Shown here piece by piece: positions 4,601-48,671 of a stretch of 64,000 nt of DNA. The notes under the pieces were generated by a model. The model worked only from the letters and a program-made list of their open reading frames with translations. It was not told the origin of the DNA and searched no databases. The translations under genes and the position numbers were made by a program. Origin of the DNA: Candidatus Sericytochromatia bacterium (lineage in GTDB: Bacteria; Cyanobacteriota; Sericytochromatia; S15B-MN24; JAQBPE01); the NCBI GenBank assembly GCA_035285125.1, contig JAYKHR010000045.1:110412-174411 (forward strand). Direction: 5' to 3'. The stretch's first letter is position 1, and every line of letters begins with the position of its first letter.

Positions 4601-4742
4601 GCTGTTCACGCTCGTCGTGATCCCGGCGGCCTTCACCCTCATCGACGACATCCAGCGCACGGCCTGGGGCTGGCTCGGCAAGCGGCTGCCGGCGCCGGAC
4701 GAGCCGGGCGACGGGGCCGCGCCGGCAGAGCCGACGGCCTAG
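1623..4742 (+). CDS. RND efflux permease, AcrB/HAE1 family
   Basis: 1039 aa. N-terminus [29 protein letters not shown]. Two large periplasmic loops between hydrophobic blocks. Conserved TM4-type motif [17 protein letters not shown] and TM10/11-type [14 protein letters not shown]. Confidence 0.95.
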
Positions 4743-5644
4743 GGCGCGGGCATCGGCAGGCCTGCCCGCCAGGCCCGGCGCAGCGCCACGGCCCGGTCGA
4801 CCTCGTTGGTGACGAGCCCATCCACGCCCCAGCGCAGCAGCCGCGCCATGGCCGCGGGCTCGTCCACCGTCCAGGCGAACAGCGGCAGCCCCTGCCCGTG
4901 GGCGGCCGCGACGACGGGGCCGCCGAGGGCCTCGTGCCAGCTCAGCACCAGGTCGGCGTGCGCGCCCAGCGCCCGGGTGGGCGGTGGCTCCAGCGGCCGC
5001 ACCAGCAGGCCGAGGGGGCGGTCGGGCGCCAGCCCCGCCAGCCGGCGCAGCGCGGCGCGGTGGAAGGAAATCAAGATGGCGCCGCCCGGCGGCGTGTGGC
5101 TGCCCAGCGCCTCGGCCACGCGCCGCACGAGCCCGGGGTGGGCCTCCTTGAGCTCGACCACCGCCACGGCCCGGCCCGCGAGCACCGCCAGCGCCTCCGC
5201 TACGGTGGGCACGGGCTCCCCGCGCCAGCGCGGGTGCTTCCAGCCACCCGCGTCGAGCCGCCGCAGCTCGGCGAGCGTCAGGCTGGCGACCTCCCCCCGG
5301 CCGCTGGTGGTGCGATCCACGGTGGGGTCGTGCATGAGCACGGCCTCCCCGTCGCGCGTGAGGCGCACGTCGAACTCGACGGCATCGGCCCCCGCCTCGA
5401 CGGCGGCCCGCAGGCTGGCGAGGGTGTTCTCGGGGGCCAGGGCCGAGTAGCCCCGGTGGGCGACGATCCAGGGCCGCGGGAGCGCGGGCAGGGGCCGCTT
5501 GTGGTAGGCCGCCGGGGCGGCCTGCCCCGACCAGGCGACGAGCTGCTCGCCGATGGCCCGCCCCCCCCGCGCCAGCGGGGCGCACGCCGTTGCCAGGGCC
5601 ACGTGAGCCACGAGCGCCGCCGCCAGCGCATGCCGCCTGCCCAT
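4739..5644 (-). CDS. Glycerophosphodiester phosphodiesterase (GDPD) family protein, secreted or lipoprotein
   Basis: Motifs WIVAHRGYSALAPENTL, AVEFDVRLTRDGEAVLMHD and LFAWTVDEP. Hydrophobic N-terminus MGRRHALAAALVAHVALATAC. The ORF runs up to 5674, but I prefer the ATG at 5644. Its stop overlaps the RND stop (CTAG 4739-4742). Confidence 0.85.
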   Translation of the reverse strand: MGRRHALAAALVAHVALATACAPLARGGRAIGEQLVAWSGQAAPAAYHKRPLPALPRPWIVAHRGYSALAPENTLASLRAAVEAGADAVEFDVRLTRDGEAVLMHDPTVDRTTSGRGEVASLTLAELRRLDAGGWKHPRWRGEPVPTVAEALAVLAGRAVAVVELKEAHPGLVRRVAEALGSHTPPGGAILISFHRAALRRLAGLAPDRPLGLLVRPLEPPPTRALGAHADLVLSWHEALGGPVVAAAHGQGLPLFAWTVDEPAAMARLLRWGVDGLVTNEVDRAVALRRAWRAGLPMPAP

Positions 5645-5678
5645 GGGCCGGCCCCCCTTTCCCGTGCCCCGCACGCCG

Positions 5679-7592
5679 TCAGAGCATGAAGCCGTAGAGC
5701 ACCTCGCCGTCGGGCGAGACCGTCAGCCCGCTGACGGGCCGCTCGGGCGTCCCCCGGTCCCACTCGACGTGGTGGGTCGCGCCCGTGTCGACGTCCACCG
5801 CCAGCACGCTCGTGCCGATGGCATACGCATACACGACCACCGGCTGCGTGGCGACCAGGGCGGCGGTGTCGTAGCTCGACACGTACAGCTCGCGCCGGCG
5901 CCAGGAGTACGCCAGCGTGCGGCCCATGAAGATGTTGTCGACCAGCAGGGTGTTCGTGCCGCCGTTGGCGGGGTTCACGGCCCAGATGGCCGTCCACCGC
6001 GTGTCCCCAGCCTTGGGGTGCTGGGCCAGCAGCCAGCCCGGCGGGCTCGAGTAGCCCGGCGTCACGTCGAAGGCGACGTCGTAGCACCGGCTGCTGGCCG
6101 GCAGCCGCTCGACGGGTGGGTGCCCGACGGCCACCGGCACCGTCGCTGGCGGCGTGCCCGTGACCTCGTAGAGCGAGGCGCCCTGGGCGGCGCGGTCGTT
6201 CGCGAGGTAGAGCCGCTCGCCGAAGCGCCGGAAGGCGTTGTAGACGTTGGATGCCGACTCGATGGGCATGTACGGCTGCCACGTGAACGCGCTGAGGCTG
6301 GCATCAACGGGCGTGCCGCGCAGGAGCTGCTCCGAGTCGCCGTGGGCCAGCACGGCGGCGCTGCCGGGCTCCCGGACGGCGCCACGAACGGCATTCTGCC
6401 AGGCCGTGGCCACCGGGTCGCGCAGCACCCCGGTCCCGGTGTCGTAGATGCGCAGCTCGGGGCCGTGGGCGAGCAGGATGTACCGGGAATCGTAGAACGA
6501 GCCGTACCAGCGCGTCACGCGGGCGGGGTTGGCCGGCCGCCCCATGTCGACGAGCCGGAAGCGGCTGCCCAGACCATCCCGCCGCCGCTTGCGCTCGGGC
6601 GTGGGCACCCAGCCAGCCGGCTCACCCGTCAGCCGCAGGCCCGGCGCCAGCCCGCTGAAGCCCAGCTCACCCGCCACCCCGATCGTCGGCCGGTCGAGCG
6701 GGAAGTCCTCCGCCGTGAAGGGGACGGTGCCGGACGCCACCGCGAGCGGCTCGAGCGGGAGCCGTGCAAGCTCGGCGCGCACGGCCCCGTCCAGCGCGGC
6801 AAAGGCGCCAAGCCGGCCGAGCGCCGCCCGCAGGGCGTCCGAGGAGGCCGCCAGCCCGTCCGGGCCGAGGCCCGTGACGAGGTCGTCGGCCCAGGCCGGC
6901 TGCCTGGCGAGGGCCTCCTCGAGCGCCGCCACGGCCCGCCTGGCGGCCTCGAAGGCCTGCGCCACGCCGGCCTCCCGGGCCGCCTGCGGCCGCAGCAACT
7001 GGAGCTTGAAGACGCCCTGGAAGGCGCGAGCGGCGGCCGTGCTCGCGGGGCTGAGCACGAGCCGCAGCGTCACGTCGCCGGCCTCGCGCAGGGCGTAGCC
7101 CCGGGCAGGCGCGGCCAGGAGCCGCCCCTGGCCGTCGAGCAGCGCGACGAAGGCCTGGGAACCCGTCTTCGCGACCAGCCGGACGACCTGGCCTGCCGCC
7201 AGCGGCGGCAGCGCAAGGTCGAAGGCCCCGGCCGCGTCCGTCCGCAGGGTGCCGCCGCCGGCCTCCTCCCAGGCCGTGAGGGGCACCGCCCGCCCCGTGG
7301 CGAGGTCCCAGGCCGTGAGGCTGGCGCCCTCCACGGGCTGGCCGTTAACGGCCACGCTGCCGAGCAGCCGGCGGCGGATGGCGGGCAGGGGCGTCGCAGG
7401 CGCCGGGGCGGGCGAGGCCGACGCCGGCGGTGGTGAGGCGCTGCCCGGGGCGGAGGGCGCCAGGGACGCGGGAGGCCCTCCCCCCGGAGCCGCGCCTGCC
7501 GTCGGCGCCGGGCTCAGCCCGGCCGGCGGGGCACAGCTCGGCAGCAGGAAGGCTCCGACCAGGAGGGACAGGGCGAGGCGCGAGGGGACCAC
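5679..7592 (-). CDS. Lipoprotein of unknown function: Pro/Ala-rich linker, carboxypeptidase-regulatory-like beta-sandwich, Ala-rich helical region and a beta-rich C-terminal domain
   Basis: 637 aa. GTG start preceded by GGAGAA. Signal plus lipobox-like LLPSCAPP. VAVNGQPVEGASLTAWDLATGRAV...TDAAGAFDL resembles CarboxypepD_reg-type sandwiches. The architecture parallels the three large paralogs at 22273..28934. Confidence 0.7.
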   Translation of the reverse strand: MVPSRLALSLLVGAFLLPSCAPPAGLSPAPTAGAAPGGGPPASLAPSAPGSASPPPASASPAPAPATPLPAIRRRLLGSVAVNGQPVEGASLTAWDLATGRAVPLTAWEEAGGGTLRTDAAGAFDLALPPLAAGQVVRLVAKTGSQAFVALLDGQGRLLAAPARGYALREAGDVTLRLVLSPASTAAARAFQGVFKLQLLRPQAAREAGVAQAFEAARRAVAALEEALARQPAWADDLVTGLGPDGLAASSDALRAALGRLGAFAALDGAVRAELARLPLEPLAVASGTVPFTAEDFPLDRPTIGVAGELGFSGLAPGLRLTGEPAGWVPTPERKRRRDGLGSRFRLVDMGRPANPARVTRWYGSFYDSRYILLAHGPELRIYDTGTGVLRDPVATAWQNAVRGAVREPGSAAVLAHGDSEQLLRGTPVDASLSAFTWQPYMPIESASNVYNAFRRFGERLYLANDRAAQGASLYEVTGTPPATVPVAVGHPPVERLPASSRCYDVAFDVTPGYSSPPGWLLAQHPKAGDTRWTAIWAVNPANGGTNTLLVDNIFMGRTLAYSWRRRELYVSSYDTAALVATQPVVVYAYAIGTSVLAVDVDTGATHHVEWDRGTPERPVSGLTVSPDGEVLYGFML

Positions 7593-7726: not shown

Positions 7727-9022
7727 TCAGGCCCGAGAGGCCGTAAAGACGACGGGTTCAGCCGGGCGTGCGGATACGGGCAAGGTGACGACGAAGTTGC
7801 TTCCCTCGCCTGGCGTGCTGGTCACCGTCAGCGTTCCCTGGTGCCCCCCCTCGATGATCGCACGGCTGAGCGTCAGGCCAAGTCCGAGGCCCCGGCTCCC
7901 CGACTGGCCGGGACAGGCCTGGAAGAACGGTTCGAAAACCCGAGCCAGGTGCTCGGGTTCGATGCCGACCCCCGTGTCGACCACCCGCAGCTCGGCGGCA
8001 CGTGGCATCCTGGCCAGCTGCACCTCCACGCGCCCCCCGGCCGGGGTCGCCTTGCGCGCGTTATCAAGGAGGTTTTGCAGCACCTGGTTCAGGCGGTCTG
8101 CATCGGCCTCGATGGAGACCCCTTCTGACGGCATGTCCGTGACCAGCGTGATGCCTGCCGCGTCGAACGCTGGCCGCTGCGCGTTCGTCACCTGGTGCAC
8201 CAGGTCGTTCAACTGGGTGGGGCCCTTCTCGCAGGAGAGTCCATGCGTTCGCAAGCGAGCCAGCTCGAACACGTCATTCACCAGGCGTTTCAGCACCAGG
8301 GACTGCTCCTCGGCCACTTGGAGCAGCCCCGCGGTCGGCTCGGCCAGAGCCTGACCCTGACCGCTCCTCAGAATGTGAAGCGCGGTGATCACGGAGGTAA
8401 GGGGCGTCCTGAGCTCGTGGCCGATGGTGGTGATGAACTGATACTTCGCGGCATCCAGCCGGGCCAGCTCCTCGTTGTGGAGGCGCAACTGCGCGTTCGT
8501 GGTTTCGATCAGGAAGACCAGCATGCCAACCCCAACCATCAGGTTCAGCACCATCGAAACCGAGTACCCGACCCAGGCCCAGGGCGTGTGCGCCAGGACA
8601 GGATAGGAGAAAAACCAGAGGCCGGAGATGACAACGGGCAGGCCCAGGAATCTGGAGCCGGCGGCCTGGTGGGTTCGCAGGATGCTCCATCCCAGCCACA
8701 CGTGGAGCCAAGAATAGGCAAGCATGGAGGGCAGGACCACCACATTGAAAGGCTGCCCCCACGCAGCAAGGCCGGCGCCAGGAAGGCCAGTAGCCACCAA
8801 GAAAAGGGGGAGGCGACGCGCGGTCATCGGGGCGTCACGGCGCAAGACCCGAGAGGCCTGAACGAGGCACCAGCAAATCGCGTTGACCAGGACAACTTCC
8901 AGACCCCACAACCATCCGGGACGTCCAAAGAAGGCTGCAAACATCTCGGACAGCAGGAGGCAAAGCCCCCCCCGTAGGCGCACAGCCACAGTCTGAAGAA
9001 CGGGGTCTGGTGGTGCCTCCAA
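7727..9022 (-). CDS. Sensor histidine kinase (polytopic N-terminus, HisKA + HATPase_c); no adjacent response regulator. The N-terminus probably extends to GTG 9096 through a frameshift at 8966-8973
   Basis: H-box FITTIGHELRTPLTSV. N-box LNQVLQNLLDNARKAT. G1 VVDTGVGIEPEHLARVFEPFFQ. G2 GSRGLGLGLTLSRAII. Several hydrophobic helices lie upstream of the HisKA domain. See the finding on the C8 tract. Confidence 0.9.
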   Translation of the reverse strand: MEAPPDPVLQTVAVRLRGGLCLLLSEMFAAFFGRPGWLWGLEVVLVNAICWCLVQASRVLRRDAPMTARRLPLFLVATGLPGAGLAAWGQPFNVVVLPSMLAYSWLHVWLGWSILRTHQAAGSRFLGLPVVISGLWFFSYPVLAHTPWAWVGYSVSMVLNLMVGVGMLVFLIETTNAQLRLHNEELARLDAAKYQFITTIGHELRTPLTSVITALHILRSGQGQALAEPTAGLLQVAEEQSLVLKRLVNDVFELARLRTHGLSCEKGPTQLNDLVHQVTNAQRPAFDAAGITLVTDMPSEGVSIEADADRLNQVLQNLLDNARKATPAGGRVEVQLARMPRAAELRVVDTGVGIEPEHLARVFEPFFQACPGQSGSRGLGLGLTLSRAIIEGGHQGTLTVTSTPGEGSNFVVTLPVSARPAEPVVFTASRA

Positions 9023-9197
9023 ATCCAGGCTGACATAACCAAGATCGTCGCCACGCCAAGGACGTTGCTGATACTGGCCTGCTCAACTTGTGTCACAATG
9101 GCTCCGTGGAGGTTTCGAAGTCGTGCGCACCCGTGTGTCGCCAATTTTCCACGGTCAACAATAGCGGACCCTGCAGGAAAGGTTCAACCATCCTCCG

Positions 9198-11655
9198 ATG
9201 AGACGCCACGCTGACTACGTCGACCTGGCCTTCGGGATGTTTGCGGAATCCGCGCGACGCGGGGTCCTGTTTCACACGGCCGAGGATGAGGTCCTCGACG
9301 GGCGCTGCATCACCGTGACCGGCCAGAAATGGCTCAACTTCGCATCCTGCTCCTACCTGGGGCTGGAGCTCGATGAGCGCCTGAAGGCTGGCGCCATCGA
9401 GGCGGTGAGCCGCTACGGCACCCAGTTCTCCGCCTCACGCGCCGCGGTCTCCGCACCTCCGTACAAGGAGCTGGAGGCGCTGCTGGAAGCCGTGTTCGAC
9501 GCCATCCCCCTGCCCACGCCCACCACGTCGCTCGGCCACATCGCAGCCTTGCCGGCGCTGGTCGAGGACACGGATCTGATGGTGCTCGACCAACAGGTGC
9601 ACGCGAGCGTGATGAACGCGGCGAACCTGGCGCGGGTGCACGGGGCCGGCCTGGAGGTGATCCGTCACAACAACCTCGCCCAGCTGGAGGACATCCTGGT
9701 GCGTGAACGCGGTCGTCGCCGCCACATCTGGTACCTGGCGGATGGCGTCTACAGCATGTACGGAGACTTTGCGCCGATCGAGGCGCTGATGAAGCTGCTC
9801 GGGCAGCACGAGCAGCTCCACCTGTACGTCGACGACGCCCACGCCATGAGCTGGTGCGGCCAGCACGGGCGCGGCTTCGTGCTCGGCAACACGCCGTTGC
9901 ACCCCAGGATGGTGGTGGCGACCTCCCTGAACAAGGCCTTTGCCTGCGCGGGTGGCGTGCTCCTCTTGCCAGACCCGAAGCTGCGCGCCAGGGTGCGCAT
10001 GGGCGGTGGACCGTTGATTTTCTCGGGGCCCCTCCAACCTCCCATGCTCGGGGCCGCCGTGGCCGCGGCCAGGCTCCACTTGTCCCCCGAGTTTCCAGCC
10101 CTCCAGCACGAGCTGCTGGAGCGCATCCGACACTGCAACCGGGTCTGCAACGCACTCGGGCTGCCCCTGGTGTCCCAGGACGAGAGCCCCGTCCGCTTCA
10201 TCGCCACAGGCCTGCCGCAGGTCAGCTACGACATGGTCGAGCGGTTGCAGCGGGAGGGCTTTTACCTGACTGTCGCGGTCTTCCCCTTGGTCCCGATGAA
10301 GCGGGCGGGACTGCGCCTCACGCTGACCCGGCACCTGAGCCTCGACGACATCAGCCGGCTGGCAGAGGCGGTGGCCCACCACCTGCCGTTGGCCCTGCAG
10401 CAAGCAGGTTCTTCCTTGGAAGAGGTCCGGGCCGCGTTTCAACTCGGGGAGGCAGAGCACCCGCAAGCCGTCGCGAGGCCCACACCGACGCACCTGCGGC
10501 TCGAGAAGGTCACCTCCATCGCCCGGCTCGATGCCGAGGAGTGGGACGCGCTGCTGGGGAATCGCGGCACCTTCGGCGCGGAGGCCCTGGCCCTCCTGGA
10601 AGCCACCTTTGAGGGGCAAGCCCACCCCGAAAACAACTGGCGGTTCCTGTATTACCTCGTGCGAGATGGCGCGGGGAAGGCCGTTGCCGCCACGTTCTTC
10701 ACCGAGACCCTCTGGAAGGACGACATGATCGCCTCTCCCGACGTGTCGAGGCTCGCCGAGCAGCGGCGCCGGAAGGACCCCACCTTTTTGACCTCACGCA
10801 CCCTGGCGATGGGATCGCTGCTGACCGAAGGGGACCACCTCTACCTGGACCGCACGGGCGACTGGCGAGAGGCGCTCCGGCTGATCCTTCGCGACGTCGC
10901 AGAGGAACAATCCCACGGCGCCCGGGTGCTGGTGCTGCGAGACCTCGACGCAGAGGATCCCGAGTTGGACGCCTACCTGTTGTCCCAAGGCTTCGCCCGC
11001 TACCTGATGCCCGAAACGATGGTGCTCGACCTGGCGCCGGATTACAGGCTCGACGACTACATGGCGCGCCTCACGCGGCGGTCGCGCCGCTTCCTCAAGC
11101 AAGAGGTGTTGCCCAGGACCTCGCAGCTCAAGGTTCGCCTGGCTGGGGGCGAGGCGCCGGCGCTGAGCCAGGACGAGTTGCGCTACCTTCACCGCCTGTA
11201 TGCCAACGTTCAGGCTCGCAGCTTCGAACTCAACACCTTCACGCTCCCCCTGGCACTTTTCGAGCGGATGAACGGGAGGCAGGCCTGGGAATTCCTGCTG
11301 CTCCACGTTCCCCCTGAAGCTGGGGGGGCCTGCAGACGGGCAGCCCGTGGCTTTCTTGGCCGCGCACCGGGGGCCGGGCCCCTACGTCCCGCTCCTGGTG
11401 GGGCTGGATTACCGCTACGTCGAGTCTCACGGGGTCTACCGGCAGGCGATCTGGGCCGCCATCGGACGGGCTCGCGCGGTGGGGGCCACGCGCGTGTGCT
11501 TCGGGATGGGGGCGGCCCTCGAAAAGCATCGTTTCGGGGCAACGGGAAGCCGCCACGCCATTTACTTCCAGGTCGCCGACACCTACAACTTCGAGGTCCT
11601 GCTCCAACTGATGGGCGAGGTGGGCCGGAGCCCCGCCCCGCTCGGCCAGCCCTGA
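9198..11655 (+). CDS. Fusion protein: PLP-dependent alpha-oxoamine synthase (BioF/Kbl/Spt family) plus a C-terminal FemAB/GNAT-fold (BioF2-like) acyltransferase domain. Frameshifted as assembled at the G7 tract 11322-11328
   Basis: N-terminal half: NFASCSYLGLELDERL, YVDDAHAMSW and the PLP-lysine context VVATSLNKAFACAGGVL. C-terminal half: ARLDAEEWDALL...FLYYLVRDGAGKAVAATFF...LLHVPPEAGG in frame 3. It continues in frame 1 as PADGQPVAFLAAHRGPGPYVPLLVGLDYRYVESHGVYRQAIWAAIGRARAVGATRVCFGMGAALEKHRFGA, with TGA at 11653-11655. The frame-3 tail to 12002 is Arg/Gly/Pro junk that overlaps the convergent gene. Confidence 0.8.
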
Positions 11656-11659
11656 GCGC

Positions 11660-12838
11660 TCACCGCGGAATCCGCGTGGCGAGCTGGCCGAGCACCCGGG
11701 AGGCCCCCGCCGCGAGCGCGGCGAGCCCGGCAAGCATTGCCGCCACAGGCCGCGGTGCAGCCTGCGGCGCCAGGCTGGCGGGCCCCGCCGTGGCCTCGGG
11801 CGGCGGTGCCGCAAGGGCCGGCTCCTCCCCCGCCTGGGGCGGCTCCCCGGGCAGCGGCGGCGGCGCGGCCGGCAGCCCCCCCGGATGCGCGGGCGTCGCG
11901 GGGGCCGCCAGCACCGCCTGGTGGAGGTCCCGCGTCAGGCCCGCGATGCGCGCCCAGGTGTTCCCCCCGGGCGCCTCCCGCGTGAGCACGGCGAGCACGT
12001 AGCTGCGCCCGGCCACCTCGATGATGGCGACGTCGTGCGTGACCTCGGAGGTCTCGCCCGTCTTGTGGTAGACGCGGGCGTCGCGGGGCAGCCCGGCCGG
12101 GATCTTGTCATGGTCGAGCTGGCGGCCGAGGATCGCCTTCATGCGCGCGCTGGCCGCGGGCGAGACGAGGGTGCCAGCCTGAAGCCGCACCAGCATCGTT
12201 GCCATGTCGAGGGCCGTCGTGCGGTTGCGCCCGCCCGGCGAGGCGTCGTCTCGCACGGTGTTGCCGGCGCTGAGCTTGCGGGCCAGGACCGTCGCCGGCG
12301 CCCCCCAGCGGCTGAAGCCCGCGGCCAGGGCCGTGCGGTCGAGGCCATCGAGCAGGGTGTTGGTCGCCACGTTGTCGCTGCGGGTGATCAGCACGTCTTG
12401 CAGCGTGGCGAGCGACACCCGCGTGCCGGGCCGCAGGTGCGGACGCGCGTCGCCCGGCGGCGACCACGTGCCCGTCATGTTGGCGGCCTTCACCGCGACG
12501 GAGGCCGCGGGGTCGAGGCGGCCGGCCTCGATGGCCTCCTGCACGGCCGCGAGCAGCGGCAGCTTGATCACGCTCGCCGCCGGGAAGGCCACCTGGCCGT
12601 GGCGCATCGCCAGCCGGTTGGTGGCGGGCTCGACCAGCACGATGCCTGCCGCCGACAGCCCCCAGCGCCTCGCCGCGGCATCGAGCGCGGCCTGCAAGGC
12701 GGCATCGGGCCTCGCCGGGAGCGAGGCGACAGGGGCCGGCGCGGGCGCGGCGGGCACGGCGTCGCCCTGGCGCGGCGGGGGGGGCGGCGCCAGCTCGGAT
12801 CGCCGGGGGACGGGCTGCAGGGGGGAGACTGCGGGCAT
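11660..12838 (-). CDS. Class A beta-lactamase-fold serine hydrolase with a Pro/Ala-rich C-terminal extension and a hydrophobic tail
   Basis: SxxK (AASVIKLPLL), SDN (TRSDNVATN) and KTG (YHKTGETS) motifs occur in the canonical order. I prefer the ATG at 12838 (MPAVSPLQP...); the ORF runs up to 12967. C-terminus ...PRPVAAMLAGLAALAAGASRVLGQL. Confidence 0.8.
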   Translation of the reverse strand: MPAVSPLQPVPRRSELAPPPPPRQGDAVPAAPAPAPVASLPARPDAALQAALDAAARRWGLSAAGIVLVEPATNRLAMRHGQVAFPAASVIKLPLLAAVQEAIEAGRLDPAASVAVKAANMTGTWSPPGDARPHLRPGTRVSLATLQDVLITRSDNVATNTLLDGLDRTALAAGFSRWGAPATVLARKLSAGNTVRDDASPGGRNRTTALDMATMLVRLQAGTLVSPAASARMKAILGRQLDHDKIPAGLPRDARVYHKTGETSEVTHDVAIIEVAGRSYVLAVLTREAPGGNTWARIAGLTRDLHQAVLAAPATPAHPGGLPAAPPPLPGEPPQAGEEPALAAPPPEATAGPASLAPQAAPRPVAAMLAGLAALAAGASRVLGQLATRIPR

Positions 12839-13108
12839 TGGATCACGACCTCCTGGCTGCCTTGTCCTGGGCCCTGGTTCCAATCCGGTTTCAGCGGCGG
12901 CCTGGCGGGCGCCTGCCCGCCCCCGCCAGGCCAGCCCCCCACCAGTCTTGATCAGGCCTCGCAGCAACGATCTCGGGGCTTATGAAAAATTTTTCGCCCG
13001 CGGGACGAAAGGTCCGGGCGGCTCGGGCCTACAATTAAAGGAAAGTTAAGTCTTGATTCAGGAAATTTAAAGTCGCCCCGCGACCTTTCACAGGAGCTCT
13101 TCCAACTC

Positions 13109-28154: not shown

Positions 28155-28934
28155 ATGGCCCGCTCGGTTCCCCACGCCTCCCTGATAGCTACCCTGCTGG
28201 CAATCAGCCTCGGCTGCCAGGCCGTGGGCCCCGGCCGCCCGACCGCGCCCAAGCGCACGACGCCGTCCAGCACTGCCAAGGCCATCCCGGCGCCCGCCCT
28301 GGCCCGGCCTGGCGAGCCCCGGCGCATCCCCCAGCAGGGCCAGCAGACCCGCCTCGCGGGCCTCGCCCGCCTCATCGCCCACCCCGGCGGGGCCCTCATC
28401 AGCGACCAGGGGGGGGCCCTCATCAGCGACCAGGGGGGCGCCCTGATCAGCGACCAGGGCGGGGCCGTCATCAGCAACAACAGCGGGAGCATCATCAGCG
28501 ACCAAGGCGGCTCGCTCATCGGCAACAACGGCGGCGGCCTGCTCGGCAATACCAAGGCCCAGCGCCTGCTGCAGGCAAGCTCTGGCCTCGGCGTCTACGG
28601 CCTCGCCGACGCCGAGATCCGCCTCTACGACGCCGCCGGCCGGCTGCTCGTCGACGACGCCGGCAAGCCCCTCGCCGCCACGACCGGCCGCGACGCCACC
28701 TTCCAGCTCGAGGCTGTGCTGCCGCCAGGCAACATGGTGGCCCGCATCAAGCTCTGGAATGGCGGCGAGCTCTCTGCCATCGTCGCCCGCGACGGCGCCC
28801 AGCAGGCGTCGCTCGCGCTCACCACTGCCTCCTCGCTGGGGGCCACCTACGTGATGGGCCTCGTCAAGGGCGACCAGGCCATCCTGAACAAGCTGCCCGC
28901 CGCCGAGAACGACCGCCTCAACCGCGAGCTCGAC
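28155..28934 (+). pseudogene. Paralog 3 of the large lipoprotein family, truncated after 260 codons by the palindrome axis
   Basis: GGAGAGGAGG lies upstream of ATG 28155. MARSVPHASLIATLLAISLGCQA lipobox, octapeptide repeats and beta-sandwich are collinear with paralogs 1 and 2 up to ...NDRLNRELDV. There the paralogs continue VRGF..., but this sequence turns into its own reverse complement. Confidence 0.75.
28386..28553 (+). repeat. In-frame octapeptide repeat, 7 units: GGALISDQ x3, GGAVISNN, SGSIISDQ, GGSLIGNN, GGGLLGNT
   Basis: Read directly in frame. The first three 24-nt units are nearly identical. Confidence 0.9.
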
Positions 28935-46213: not shown

Positions 46214-48671
46214 TCAGGGCTGGCCGAGCGGGGCGGGGCTCCGGCCCACCTCGCCCATCAGTTGGAGCAGGACCTCGAAGTTGTAGGTGTCGGCGACCTG
46301 GAAGTAAATGGCGTGGCGGCTTCCCGTTGCCCCGAAACGATGCTTTTCGAGGGCCGCCCCCATCCCGAAGCACACGCGCGTGGCCCCCACCGCGCGAGCC
46401 CGTCCGATGGCGGCCCAGATCGCCTGCCGGTAGACCCCGTGAGACTCGACGTAGCGGTAATCCAGCCCCACCAGGAGCGGGACGTAGGGGCCCGGCCCCC
46501 GGTGCGCGGCCAAGAAAGCCACGGGCTGCCCGTCTGCAGGCCCCCCCAGCTTCAGGGGGAACGTGGAGCAGCAGGAATTCCCAGGCCTGCCTCCCGTTCA
46601 TCCGCTCGAAAAGTGCCAGGGGGAGCGTGAAGGTGTTGAGTTCGAAGCTGCGAGCCTGAACGTTGGCATACAGGCGGTGAAGGTAGCGCAACTCGTCCTG
46701 GCTCAGCGCCGGCGCCTCGCCCCCAGCCAGGCGAACCTTGAGCTGCGAGGTCCTGGGCAACACCTCTTGCTTGAGGAAGCGGCGCGACCGCCGCGTGAGG
46801 CGCGCCATGTAGTCGTCGAGCCTGTAATCCGGCGCCAGGTCGAGCACCATCGTTTCGGGCATCAGGTAGCGGGCGAAGCCTTGGGACAACAGGTAGGCGT
46901 CCAACTCGGGATCCTCTGCGTCGAGGTCTCGCAGCACCAGCACCCGGGCGCCGTGGGATTGTTCCTCTGCGACGTCGCGAAGGATCAGCCGGAGCGCCTC
47001 TCGCCAGTCGCCCGTGCGGTCCAGGTAGAGGTGGTCCCCTTCGGTCAGCAGCGATCCCATCGCCAGGGTGCGTGAGGTCAAAAAGGTGGGGTCCTTCCGG
47101 CGCCGCTGCTCGGCGAGCCTCGACACGTCGGGAGAGGCGATCATGTCGTCCTTCCAGAGGGTCTCGGTGAAGAACGTGGCGGCAACGGCCTTCCCCGCGC
47201 CATCTCGCACGAGGTAATACAGGAACCGCCAGTTGTTTTCGGGGTGGGCTTGCCCCTCAAAGGTGGCTTCCAGGAGGGCCAGGGCCTCCGCGCCGAAGGT
47301 GCCGCGATTCCCCAGCAGCGCGTCCCACTCCTCGGCATCGAGCCGGGCGATGGAGGTGACCTTCTCGAGCCGCAGGTGCGTCGGTGTGGGCCTCGCGACG
47401 GCTTGCGGGTGCTCTGCCTCCCCGAGTTGAAACGCGGCCCGGACCTCTTCCAAGGAAGAACCTGCTTGCTGCAGGGCCAACGGCAGGTGGTGGGCCACCG
47501 CCTCTGCCAGCCGGCTGATGTCGTCGAGGCTCAGGTGCCGGGTCAGCGTGAGGCGCAGTCCCGCCCGCTTCATCGGGACCAAGGGGAAGACCGCGACAGT
47601 CAGGTAAAAGCCCTCCCGCTGCAACCGCTCGACCATGTCGTAGCTGACCTGCGGCAGGCCTGTGGCGATGAAGCGGACGGGGCTCTCGTCCTGGGACACC
47701 AGGGGCAGCCCGAGTGCGTTGCAGACCCGGTTGCAGTGTCGGATGCGCTCCAGCAGCTCGTGCTGGAGGGCTGGAAACTCGGGGGACAAGTGGAGCCTGG
47801 CCGCGGCCACGGCGGCCCCGAGCATGGGAGGTTGGAGGGGCCCCGAGAAAATCAACGGTCCACCGCCCATGCGCACCCTGGCGCGCAGCTTCGGGTCTGG
47901 CAAGAGGAGCACGCCACCCGCGCAGGCAAAGGCCTTGTTCAGGGAGGTCGCCACCACCATCCTGGGGTGCAACGGCGTGTTGCCGAGCACGAAGCCGCGC
48001 CCGTGCTGGCCGCACCAGCTCATGGCGTGGGCGTCGTCGACGTACAGGTGGAGCTGCTCGTGCTGCCCGAGCAGCTTCATCAGCGCCTCGATCGGCGCAA
48101 AGTCTCCGTACATGCTGTAGACGCCATCCGCCAGGTACCAGATGTGGCGGCGACGACCGCGTTCACGCACCAGGATGTCCTCCAGCTGGGCGAGGTTGTT
48201 GTGACGGATCACCTCCAGGCCGGCCCCGTGCACCCGCGCCAGGTTCGCCGCGTTCATCACGCTCGCGTGCACCTGTTGGTCGAGCACCATCAGATCCGTG
48301 TCCTCGACCAGCGCCGGCAAGGCTGCGATGTGGCCGAGCGACGTGGTGGGCGTGGGCAGGGGGATGGCGTCGAACACGGCTTCCAGCAGCGCCTCCAGCT
48401 CCTTGTACGGAGGTGCGGAGACCGCGGCGCGTGAGGCGGAGAACTGGGTGCCGTAGCGGCTCACCGCCTCGATGGCGCCAGCCTTCAGGCGCTCATCGAG
48501 CTCCAGCCCCAGGTAGGAGCAGGATGCGAAGTTGAGCCATTTCTGGCCGGTCACGGTGATGCAGCGCCCGTCGAGGACCTCATCCTCGGCCGTGTGAAAC
48601 AGGACCCCGCGTCGCGCGGATTCCGCAAACATCCCGAAGGCCAGGTCGACGTAGTCAGCGTGGCGTCTCAT
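46214..48671 (-). CDS. Alpha-oxoamine synthase / FemAB-GNAT-like fusion, frameshifted at C7 46541-46547 (mirror copy)
   Basis: Exact twin of 9198..11655. Confidence 0.8.

Follow-up and report, generated by a model that had tools for sequence, protein, structure and literature searches.

We analysed a window of 64,000 nucleotides (GC content about 72%) from the metagenome-assembled genome (MAG) of a Candidatus Sericytochromatia bacterium. It holds a gene that joins two enzyme domains in one polypeptide: a pyridoxal phosphate (PLP)-dependent alpha-oxoamine synthase (AOS) and, behind it, a transferase domain built of two GNAT folds (Table 1). The gene had been predicted from its sequence alone as a frameshifted fusion of an AOS and a FemAB/GNAT-type acyltransferase, with TSLNKAF and YVDDAHA as signature motifs. 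Both motifs are present in the fusion protein, the predicted coordinates were correct, and Pfam, the structural model and the fold matches bear out the assignment of an AOS followed by a tandem GNAT of FemAB/Acetyltransf_6 type.

The frameshift is also real in the assembly. The uncorrected open reading frame (ORF) that begins at 9198 on the forward strand has 934 codons and ends at 12002. Past residue ~710 it is filler rich in Arg, Gly, Pro and Ala, which overlaps a convergent class-A beta-lactamase-like gene (11660–12967), and a well-formed continuation of the fusion protein lies in the +1 frame, with its stop at 11655. A tblastn search with P0002, an intact 814-aa homologue (69% identity), finds residues 1–710 in one frame and 710–813 in the next. 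Removal of one G from a run of seven (G7) gives an 818-aa product whose junction aligns with 11 homologues and in which all 90 of 90 family-invariant residues are kept. In Pfam searches the window protein matches Aminotran_1_2 at residues 115–391, and its C-terminal matches to FemAB_like and Acetyltransf_6 are weak.

Table 1. Features of the fusion locus, in window coordinates.
Feature	Position	Strand	Basis or remark
Whole fusion gene, ~818 aa after frameshift read-through	9198–11655	+	End-to-end alignment with intact homologues of 812–852 aa
AOS (PLP) domain, residues ~30–395	9285–10382	+	Pfam PF00155, NCBIfam scores, alignment with Alb29 (8XHA)
Codon of Schiff-base Lys246	9933–9935	+	
Tandem-GNAT (FemABX-like) transferase domain, residues ~436–818, split by the frameshift	10503–11655	+	Pfam, AlphaFold, Foldseek, VIA-align, hhalign
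G7 homopolymer, +1 frameshift site; G6 restores the frame	11322–11328	+	tblastn, homologue alignment
Divergent intergenic region between kinase and fusion gene, 53 nt	9145–9197	none	Coordinates
Membrane sensor histidine kinase, ~472 aa read through; divergent, conserved partner	7727–9144	-	HisKA, HATPase_c
C8 run, kinase frameshift site	8966–8973	within 7727–9144 (-)	Orthologue alignment
637-aa protein, no Pfam family	5679–7592	-	Downstream of kinase, same strand
GDPD glycerophosphodiester phosphodiesterase	4739–5674	-	Downstream of kinase, same strand
Mirror copy of fusion gene; assembly artefact, no second gene	46214–48671	-	Palindrome

The same architecture is common to more than 100 homologous proteins of ~790–850 aa, so the fusion is not a chance juxtaposition. 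A survey of the kind that the original prediction had proposed found full-length fused genes in at least 79 species-representative genomes of many phyla, from Bacteroidota to Actinomycetota, and a profile of the C-terminal domain retrieves 369 clusters (at 50% identity) with E ≤ 1e-30. The carriers include Bacteroidota (Cyclobacteriaceae, Pontibacter, Flavobacterium frigoris), Myxococcota, Actinomycetota (Solirubrobacter, Blastococcus, Geodermatophilus, Dactylosporangium, Mycobacterium angelicum), Cyanobacteria/Sericytochromatia, Margulisbacteria, Paenibacillus, Reinekea and Alteromonadaceae. Hundreds of species carry the fusion, cultured organisms among them–for example, Solirubrobacter soli, Pontibacter oryzae, F. 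frigoris, and members of Blastococcus, Dactylosporangium and Paenibacillus. The nearest named relatives of the window protein come from Cyanobacteria bacterium UBA8530 and Candidatus Sericytochromatia, consistent with its source. ORFs of more than 1000 aa at three fusion loci (L011, L040 and L073) were considered as bigger fusions and rejected, as they are upstream read-through with no added domains.

AOS enzymes initiate the synthesis of biotin, haem, sphingolipids, sulfonolipids and the quorum signals CAI-1 and LAI-1. The N-terminal domain of the fusion belongs to this family by its match to PF00155 and by the SLNK, DDAH and QVH motifs that it shares with Alb29 (PDB 8XHA; alignment E = 4e-40), with the Lys, the His and the Asp-x-x-His conserved. 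Residues K246, H135, D212, H215 and R373 are invariant among the fusions and kept in the window protein. In a scan of NCBIfam models, though, the domain falls below every curated cut-off: it scores 258 bits on the 'hypothetical protein' model PRK07505 (cut-off 342), 168 bits on the bioF equivalog TIGR00858 (cut-off 426), 122 bits on Kbl (cut-off 460), 86–128 bits on three Spt models (NF047599, NF047600 and NF047603; cut-offs 500–670), 82 bits on ALAS (cut-off 339), and 63 bits on the CqsA-type model NF005526 (cut-off 428). By this measure it is not a CqsA/LqsA autoinducer synthase.

A phylogeny of the N-terminal domain against BioF, Kbl and Spt-like enzymes, which the original prediction had called for, sets it apart from all three. 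We built a maximum-likelihood tree from 36 AOS domains, which does not extend to CqsA, ALAS or Alb29. All 20 fused domains fall into a single clade in it (support 100/100), and a branch of ~3 substitutions per site separates them from the rest. On this sequence evidence the fused AOS is a deep clade of its own, apart from the BioF, Kbl and Spt-like paralogues. Five Myxococcota carriers illustrate the separation: each has a separate true BioF, Kbl and Spt-like enzymes are among their other AOS paralogues, and of all AOS paralogues in each genome the fusion stands furthest from BioF. The Spt-like paralogues score 523–541 bits (as domain pieces), are encoded by separate genes and fall in a separate clade. 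By cut-offs and by clade, then, the fused domain is neither BioF nor a bacterial Spt.

These results bear directly on the simplest alternative, that the fusion is the organism's BioF (8-amino-7-oxononanoate synthase), serving biotin synthesis with an accessory domain attached. The database names of some homologues include '7-keto-8-aminopelargonate synthetase-like', and no other AOS in the MAG reaches the bioF cut-off. However, the fused domain misses that cut-off by a wide margin too, a profile search of the genome found neither bioF nor bioB over cut-off, and no biotin genes lie near the fusion in the window. Together with the coexistence of true BioF and fusion in the Myxococcota, this leads us to regard a role in biotin synthesis as extremely improbable.

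The closest solved sequences are four Alb29 entries (E = 2e-42), followed by a next match at 3e-24; the match to CqsA in the PDB is weaker still (E = 3e-8). Alb29, from the albogrisin pathway of Streptomyces albogriseolus (PDB 8XHA, 8I7U), is an AOS whose substrates are acyl-CoAs and an unusual amino acid, L-glutamate (PMC11906848). The resemblance extends over ~380 residues (E = 2e-42 to 4e-40), but Alb29 is a stand-alone enzyme of ~400 aa in a secondary-metabolite cluster and carries no fused transferase. Another AOS with an extra domain, as in the fusion, is Rv0032 (BioF2) of Mycobacterium tuberculosis, which is uncharacterised, does not replace BioF, and is reportedly closest to Spt among validated enzymes (PMC12910592). 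On its published description the extra domain of Rv0032 is N-terminal (PMC12910592), whereas here the GNAT part follows the AOS, which sets the two types apart.

In the C-terminal domain, Acetyltransf_6 (PF13480), which Pfam named 'BioF2-like', matches 39 of 59 homologues (E ≤ 0.01) and FemAB_like (PF04339) matches 10 of the 59; such a profile check had been suggested with the original prediction. P0002 scores 45.3 bits on PF13480, against a gathering threshold of 22 bits, and the part of the window protein behind the frameshift reaches 27.4 bits in a genome search and 18.4 bits in a scan by itself. AlphaFold models the P0002 domain with confidence (pLDDT 93.8, pTM 0.90) as two GNAT subdomains. 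The top Foldseek match of the model is FemX (E = 9e-13, probability 1.0), after which come the tandem GNAT of the clavulanate pathway, Sbb17/Sba18, FemA, VipF, aminoacyl-phosphatidylglycerol synthases and N-myristoyltransferases (NMTs). In superpositions with VIA-align, the 11 best matches (Z 20.4–23.0, 273–307 aligned residues) are all Fem-family enzymes that depend on aminoacyl-tRNA, and the next tier (Z ~17–18) includes the aminoacyl-phosphatidylglycerol synthase domains of MprF and NMTs, which use acyl-CoA. The model and these superpositions together place the domain among the FemABX-like tandem GNATs.

In addition to the fold itself (~270–307 residues, Z 20–23), FemX/FemA and Sbb17/Sba18 share with the C-terminal domain a C-terminal motif region of the type G...K..(R)(F)G, as seen in the PF04339 alignment. 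Sequence identity to these enzymes is nevertheless only 11–15%, the domain has no match to the Pfam family FemAB (PF02388), and its acceptor would be a small aminoketone, in contrast to the peptidoglycan precursor on which Fem enzymes act. Aligned by hhalign with bona fide PF04339 proteins (94.9% probability over 304 columns, 20% identity), it is by profile similarity a distant full-length homologue of those proteins, outside PF04339 proper. Most full-length matches in an exhaustive search with the domain profile place it at ~425–815 of proteins of ~800–850 aa. A search for stand-alone relatives, limited in reach by its word prefilter, gave 112 matches, all of them fragment-like members of the fusion family and many on short contigs. 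Judged from these searches, the domain is essentially confined to the AOS fusion. The same MAG encodes two stand-alone Acetyltransf_6 proteins (53–55 bits; C109:18915–19310 and C117:33040–33423) at positions unrelated to the fusion.

Since the nearest folds are aminoacyl-tRNA-dependent, the group transferred by this domain may not be a fatty acyl group. In a strict form of this idea, the domain would be an aminoacyl-tRNA-dependent transferase like FemX or Sbb17, and its aminoacyl-aminoketone product could cyclise to a signal of the dihydropyrazinone or pyrazinone type. The ranking of the structural matches, with MprF domains directly behind the Fem enzymes, points this way, as do the Pfam matches to the Fem-related PF13480 and PF04339, and inspection of the consensus by eye found no canonical motif for binding the CoA pyrophosphate (Q/R-x-x-G-x-G/A) after the predicted beta4 strands. 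The shared fold does not fix the donor, however, and acyl-CoA users (NMT, VipF and a glucosamine N-acetyltransferase) lie just 3–5 Z units lower. In P0289, a metagenomic protein of 1429 aa and the most complete fused form that we saw, one chain comprises a fatty acyl-AMP ligase (FAAL), two acyl carrier protein (ACP) domains, the AOS and the tandem GNAT, in the order FAAL-ACP-ACP-AOS-tandem GNAT, and this arrangement fits acyl-ACP donors at least equally well. We think the aminoacyl-tRNA-dependent form rather unlikely. The amine would receive either a fatty acyl or an aminoacyl cap; the fold ranking leans towards Fem-type chemistry, and the FAAL/ACP fusions fit acyl-ACP.

Within the window no ACP, reductase or ligase gene adjoins the fusion, as originally observed, but the conclusion drawn at that time–that the pathway context is missing–did not hold. 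The divergently transcribed sensor histidine kinase upstream of the fusion gene is a conserved partner, and in some relatives FAAL/ACP modules are adjacent to the fusion gene or fused to it. The kinases that neighbour P0002 and P0003, both intact fusions, are full-length orthologues of the window kinase (42–43% identity). In these two closest relatives a divergent polytopic-membrane kinase is the only shared neighbour, all other flanking genes being different, and in one of the two an OmpR-type regulator follows the kinase. The divergent layout recurs at a further locus, L122, with a gap of 65 nt.

We clustered the neighbouring ORFs over the fusion loci, excluding those that overlap the fusion gene as its antisense shadow. 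A histidine kinase lies within 1.5 kb of the fusion in 38 of 78 loci, and kinase density is 1.94 per 10 kb near the fusion, compared with 0.29–0.49 further out, an enrichment of 4- to 6-fold. These counts and the divergent orthologue kept in the two closest relatives indicate a genomic coupling of synthase and sensor. Across phyla, the adjacent kinases align in their catalytic core only. Bacteroidota have an additional partner: DUF7793 adjoins the fusion in 35 loci, all from this phylum (35 of its 42 loci), in 1–7 tandem copies, and the operon order is fusion, DUF7793, and a hybrid kinase with PAS, HisKA, HATPase and REC domains. The structural model of DUF7793 (pLDDT 93.8) has a STAS/SpoIIAA fold. 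In the Bacteroidota loci L025, L076 and L077, 5–7 tandem paralogous DUF7793 genes lie directly upstream of the fusion gene. A search of the window's genome for DUF7793 gave no match, and control genomes gave none either.

Acyl-activating enzymes are a further recurrent neighbour. An AMP-ligase gene lies upstream of the fusion in Blastococcus and Spirulina loci, and FAAL-ACP or FAAL-acyl-CoA-dehydrogenase genes lie directly downstream at L083 and L073 (Bradymonadia, Myxococcales). No reductase was found to be conserved near the fusion loci in the neighbourhood clustering. In five Myxococcota loci (L015, L034, L038, L039 and L042) a gene for a di-haem cytochrome c of ~300 aa (Cytochrom_C + Cytochrome_CBB3) is located just downstream. 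In the window, the kinase gene is followed on its own strand by the genes for the 637-aa protein, whose Atlas features hint at NHL/Reg_prop propellers as a lead only, and for the GDPD phosphodiesterase.

The fused architecture is already on record through NCBI's naming of some homologues as 'bifunctional aminotransferase class I/II-fold PLP-dependent enzyme/GNAT family N-acetyltransferase', and its linkage to kinases and STAS-like proteins is apparently undescribed in the searchable literature: a full-text search found no paper on the AOS-GNAT fusion or on DUF7793, and no characterised member.

The original prediction had compared the fusion to bacterial ceramide synthesis in Caulobacter, where an Spt and the ceramide synthase bCerS (CC_1154, whose E. 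coli counterpart is YghO; PMC9386255) act in turn. Published summaries of the pathway put N-acylation ahead of reduction in the proposed order (PMC11324152, PMC9386255). The logic is alike in that a keto-amine made by an AOS is then acylated by an N-acyltransferase, and the AasR/AcpR proteins of the Caulobacter-type pathway resemble the FAAL/ACP-type acyl activation of some fusion relatives. As a claim of homology, however, the comparison fails at both ends of the protein. The AOS domain scores 128 bits against a 500-bit Spt cut-off and belongs to another clade, and carriers keep separate BioF, Kbl and Spt-like genes alongside the fusion. At the other end, hhalign of the C-terminal profile against E. 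coli K-12 YghO gave a probability of 0.4%, that is, no detectable similarity, with sensitivity limited by the single sequence on the YghO side. YghO has no Pfam family. We rejected PF04339 as a route to bCerS, as the stand-alone PF04339 proteins of the five Myxococcota carriers do not adjoin Spt, and we rejected a link through YghO, which is related neither to those proteins nor to the fusion domain. All that is left of the ceramide comparison is a similar order of reactions.

A more general version of this comparison is that the fusion is a membrane-lipid enzyme that carries out, in one polypeptide, an Spt-like condensation and a bCerS-like N-acylation, with the two-component system merely regulating envelope remodelling. 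The chemistry matches the order proposed for Caulobacter, FAAL and ACP modules are adjacent or fused in some relatives, a GDPD phosphodiesterase belongs to the kinase's gene string in the window, and acyl-CoA-using NMTs are among the fold matches (Z ~17). The Spt scores, the clade separate from the coexisting Spt-like paralogues, the lack of detectable relation to YghO and of a conserved nearby reductase, and the aminoacyl-tRNA dependence of the best fold matches all argue the other way, and we consider a lipid enzyme of this kind unlikely. The recurrent adjacency to kinases suggests a signal or a regulated lipid as the product, as opposed to biotin or a classical ceramide.

We propose that the fusion makes a long-chain aminoketone with an acyl or aminoacyl group on its nitrogen and is coupled to two-component signalling, and we rate the chance that this is correct as about even. 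Members of the family probably make an amino-ketone and then acylate its amine; that one enzyme carries out both reactions, as originally suggested, is still the most economical chemistry. Judging from family chemistry and the catalytic residues, the PLP domain would form an alpha-aminoketone by condensing an acyl thioester with an amino acid, probably one other than the classical serine, alanine or glycine. In relatives with FAAL/ACP modules the acyl group would presumably arrive as fatty acyl-ACP or acyl-CoA. The FemABX-like domain, by its fold and its fusion to the AOS, would then put an acyl or aminoacyl group on the new amine. Because free alpha-aminoketones dimerise readily, an N-capping domain in cis would be sensible: spontaneous dimerisation would be blocked, and an N-substituted long-chain aminoketone would result. 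Gene context suggests that this product is functionally linked to the adjacent sensor histidine kinase and, in Bacteroidota, also to the STAS-like DUF7793 proteins. The product would most likely be a diffusible or membrane-borne signal, or else the enzyme would be the kinase's regulated output.

The nearest precedents for such a coupling are CqsA/CqsS of Vibrio and LqsA/LqsS of Legionella, in which an AOS-family enzyme is likewise found beside a sensor histidine kinase, often a hybrid, and uses a fatty acyl thioester substrate, as proposed for the fusion. The fused AOS lies outside their clade by model score (63 against 428 bits; the tree includes no CqsA), and unlike CqsA and LqsA it carries an extra Fem-like transferase domain of ~380 aa. 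Its partner kinases also differ from those of the CqsS and LqsS pairs in that the sensor varies, being a polytopic membrane domain or PAS, and in that Bacteroidota add DUF7793.

Several points weigh against the signalling synthase that we propose. Every chemical step is deduced from sequence in a family without a characterised member, and the donor of the second step may be acyl-CoA, acyl-ACP or aminoacyl-tRNA. Given the score of only 63 bits against the 428-bit cut-off on the CqsA/LqsA-type model, the likeness to known autoinducer synthases rests on context and not on clade. Outside the Sericytochromatia-like relatives only the kinase core aligns, so with no sensor domain common to the different phyla the adjacency could mean that the kinase regulates the enzyme and does not sense its product. 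Roughly half the loci lack a nearby kinase (for example, those of Solirubrobacter, M. angelicum and Paenibacillus). Finally, the fusion gene is frameshifted in this genome.

The kinase gene is broken as well. Its close orthologues align to it with their first ~45–57 residues in frame -1 and all later ones in frame -3, and addition of one C at the C8 run gives an uninterrupted kinase of 472 aa. As assembled, the module of synthase (G7) and kinase (C8) is off. This raises the possibility that both indels are real in the DNA, and that the gene and its partner kinase have recently decayed to pseudogenes or form a phase-variable locus. A Logan contig, assembled independently from k-mers of the probable source run (X1, from a lagoon metagenome), has G7 as the only form, at a depth of 13.6, and shows zero differences and zero gaps relative to window positions 9000–12100. 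The tract is also spanned, with an identical G7, by a contig of 255 nt from another sample of the study that yielded X1 (run X2); runs X3 and X4 gave short, partly divergent pieces only, which are uninformative on the tract. Nor is the assembly riddled with homopolymer errors, since 293 of the 367 G7/C7 runs in the genome lie inside unbroken frames.

On the other hand, the invariant residues of the fusion protein are all intact and we saw no further lesion. The read data take the form of contigs, from which minor variants have been dropped, and the sequencing platform is not on record. In a genome-wide homopolymer census, the frame changes at 11% of G7/C7 runs as against 4.7% of random positions, an excess that may include some technical indels. 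The MAG (4.25 Mb, 176 contigs) is 87.5% complete with 6.9% contamination, and the contig that holds the fusion is itself folded back: window positions 1–57868 form a perfect palindrome centred at 28934/28935, and the entire contig (C45, 278,690 bp) is its own reverse complement with zero mismatches, the sole such contig among the 176. The contig is a fold-back assembly artefact in which every gene of the arm appears twice, and the palindrome accordingly makes the second copy of the fusion gene artefactual (Table 1). Weighing both sides, we regard genuine inactivation or phase variation as a serious prospect that falls somewhat short of an even chance. A second fragment of the fused AOS clade occurs in the same MAG, on a 5.8-kb contig (C96:2821–3420, locus L003). 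It comprises residues 1–200 only, is 51% identical to P0002, and could represent a truncated paralogue, a contaminant or an assembly error.

A bolder extension of the proposed synthase, which we offer as a rather doubtful conjecture, is that fusion, kinase and, in Bacteroidota, tandem DUF7793 would constitute an unrecognised system of cell-cell or envelope signalling shared by Bacteroidota, Myxococcota, Sericytochromatia and Actinomycetota. The signal would be an N-acylated or N-aminoacylated long-chain aminoketone, or the pyrazinone or oxazole to which that cyclises, made partly by aminoacyl-tRNA-dependent chemistry.

For annotation, the labels 'BioF-like' and 'ceramide' are both misleading for this family. 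Our analysis defines a further deep clade of AOS enzymes, predicted from sequence, that is always fused to a Fem-type transferase and is found repeatedly beside sensor kinases. A lipid product would make up a new class, the N-acyl aminoketone lipids. If the product is a signal, AOS-based signalling would extend far beyond Vibrio and Legionella, and the fusion would provide a testable candidate autoinducer system for Bacteroidota and Myxococcota.

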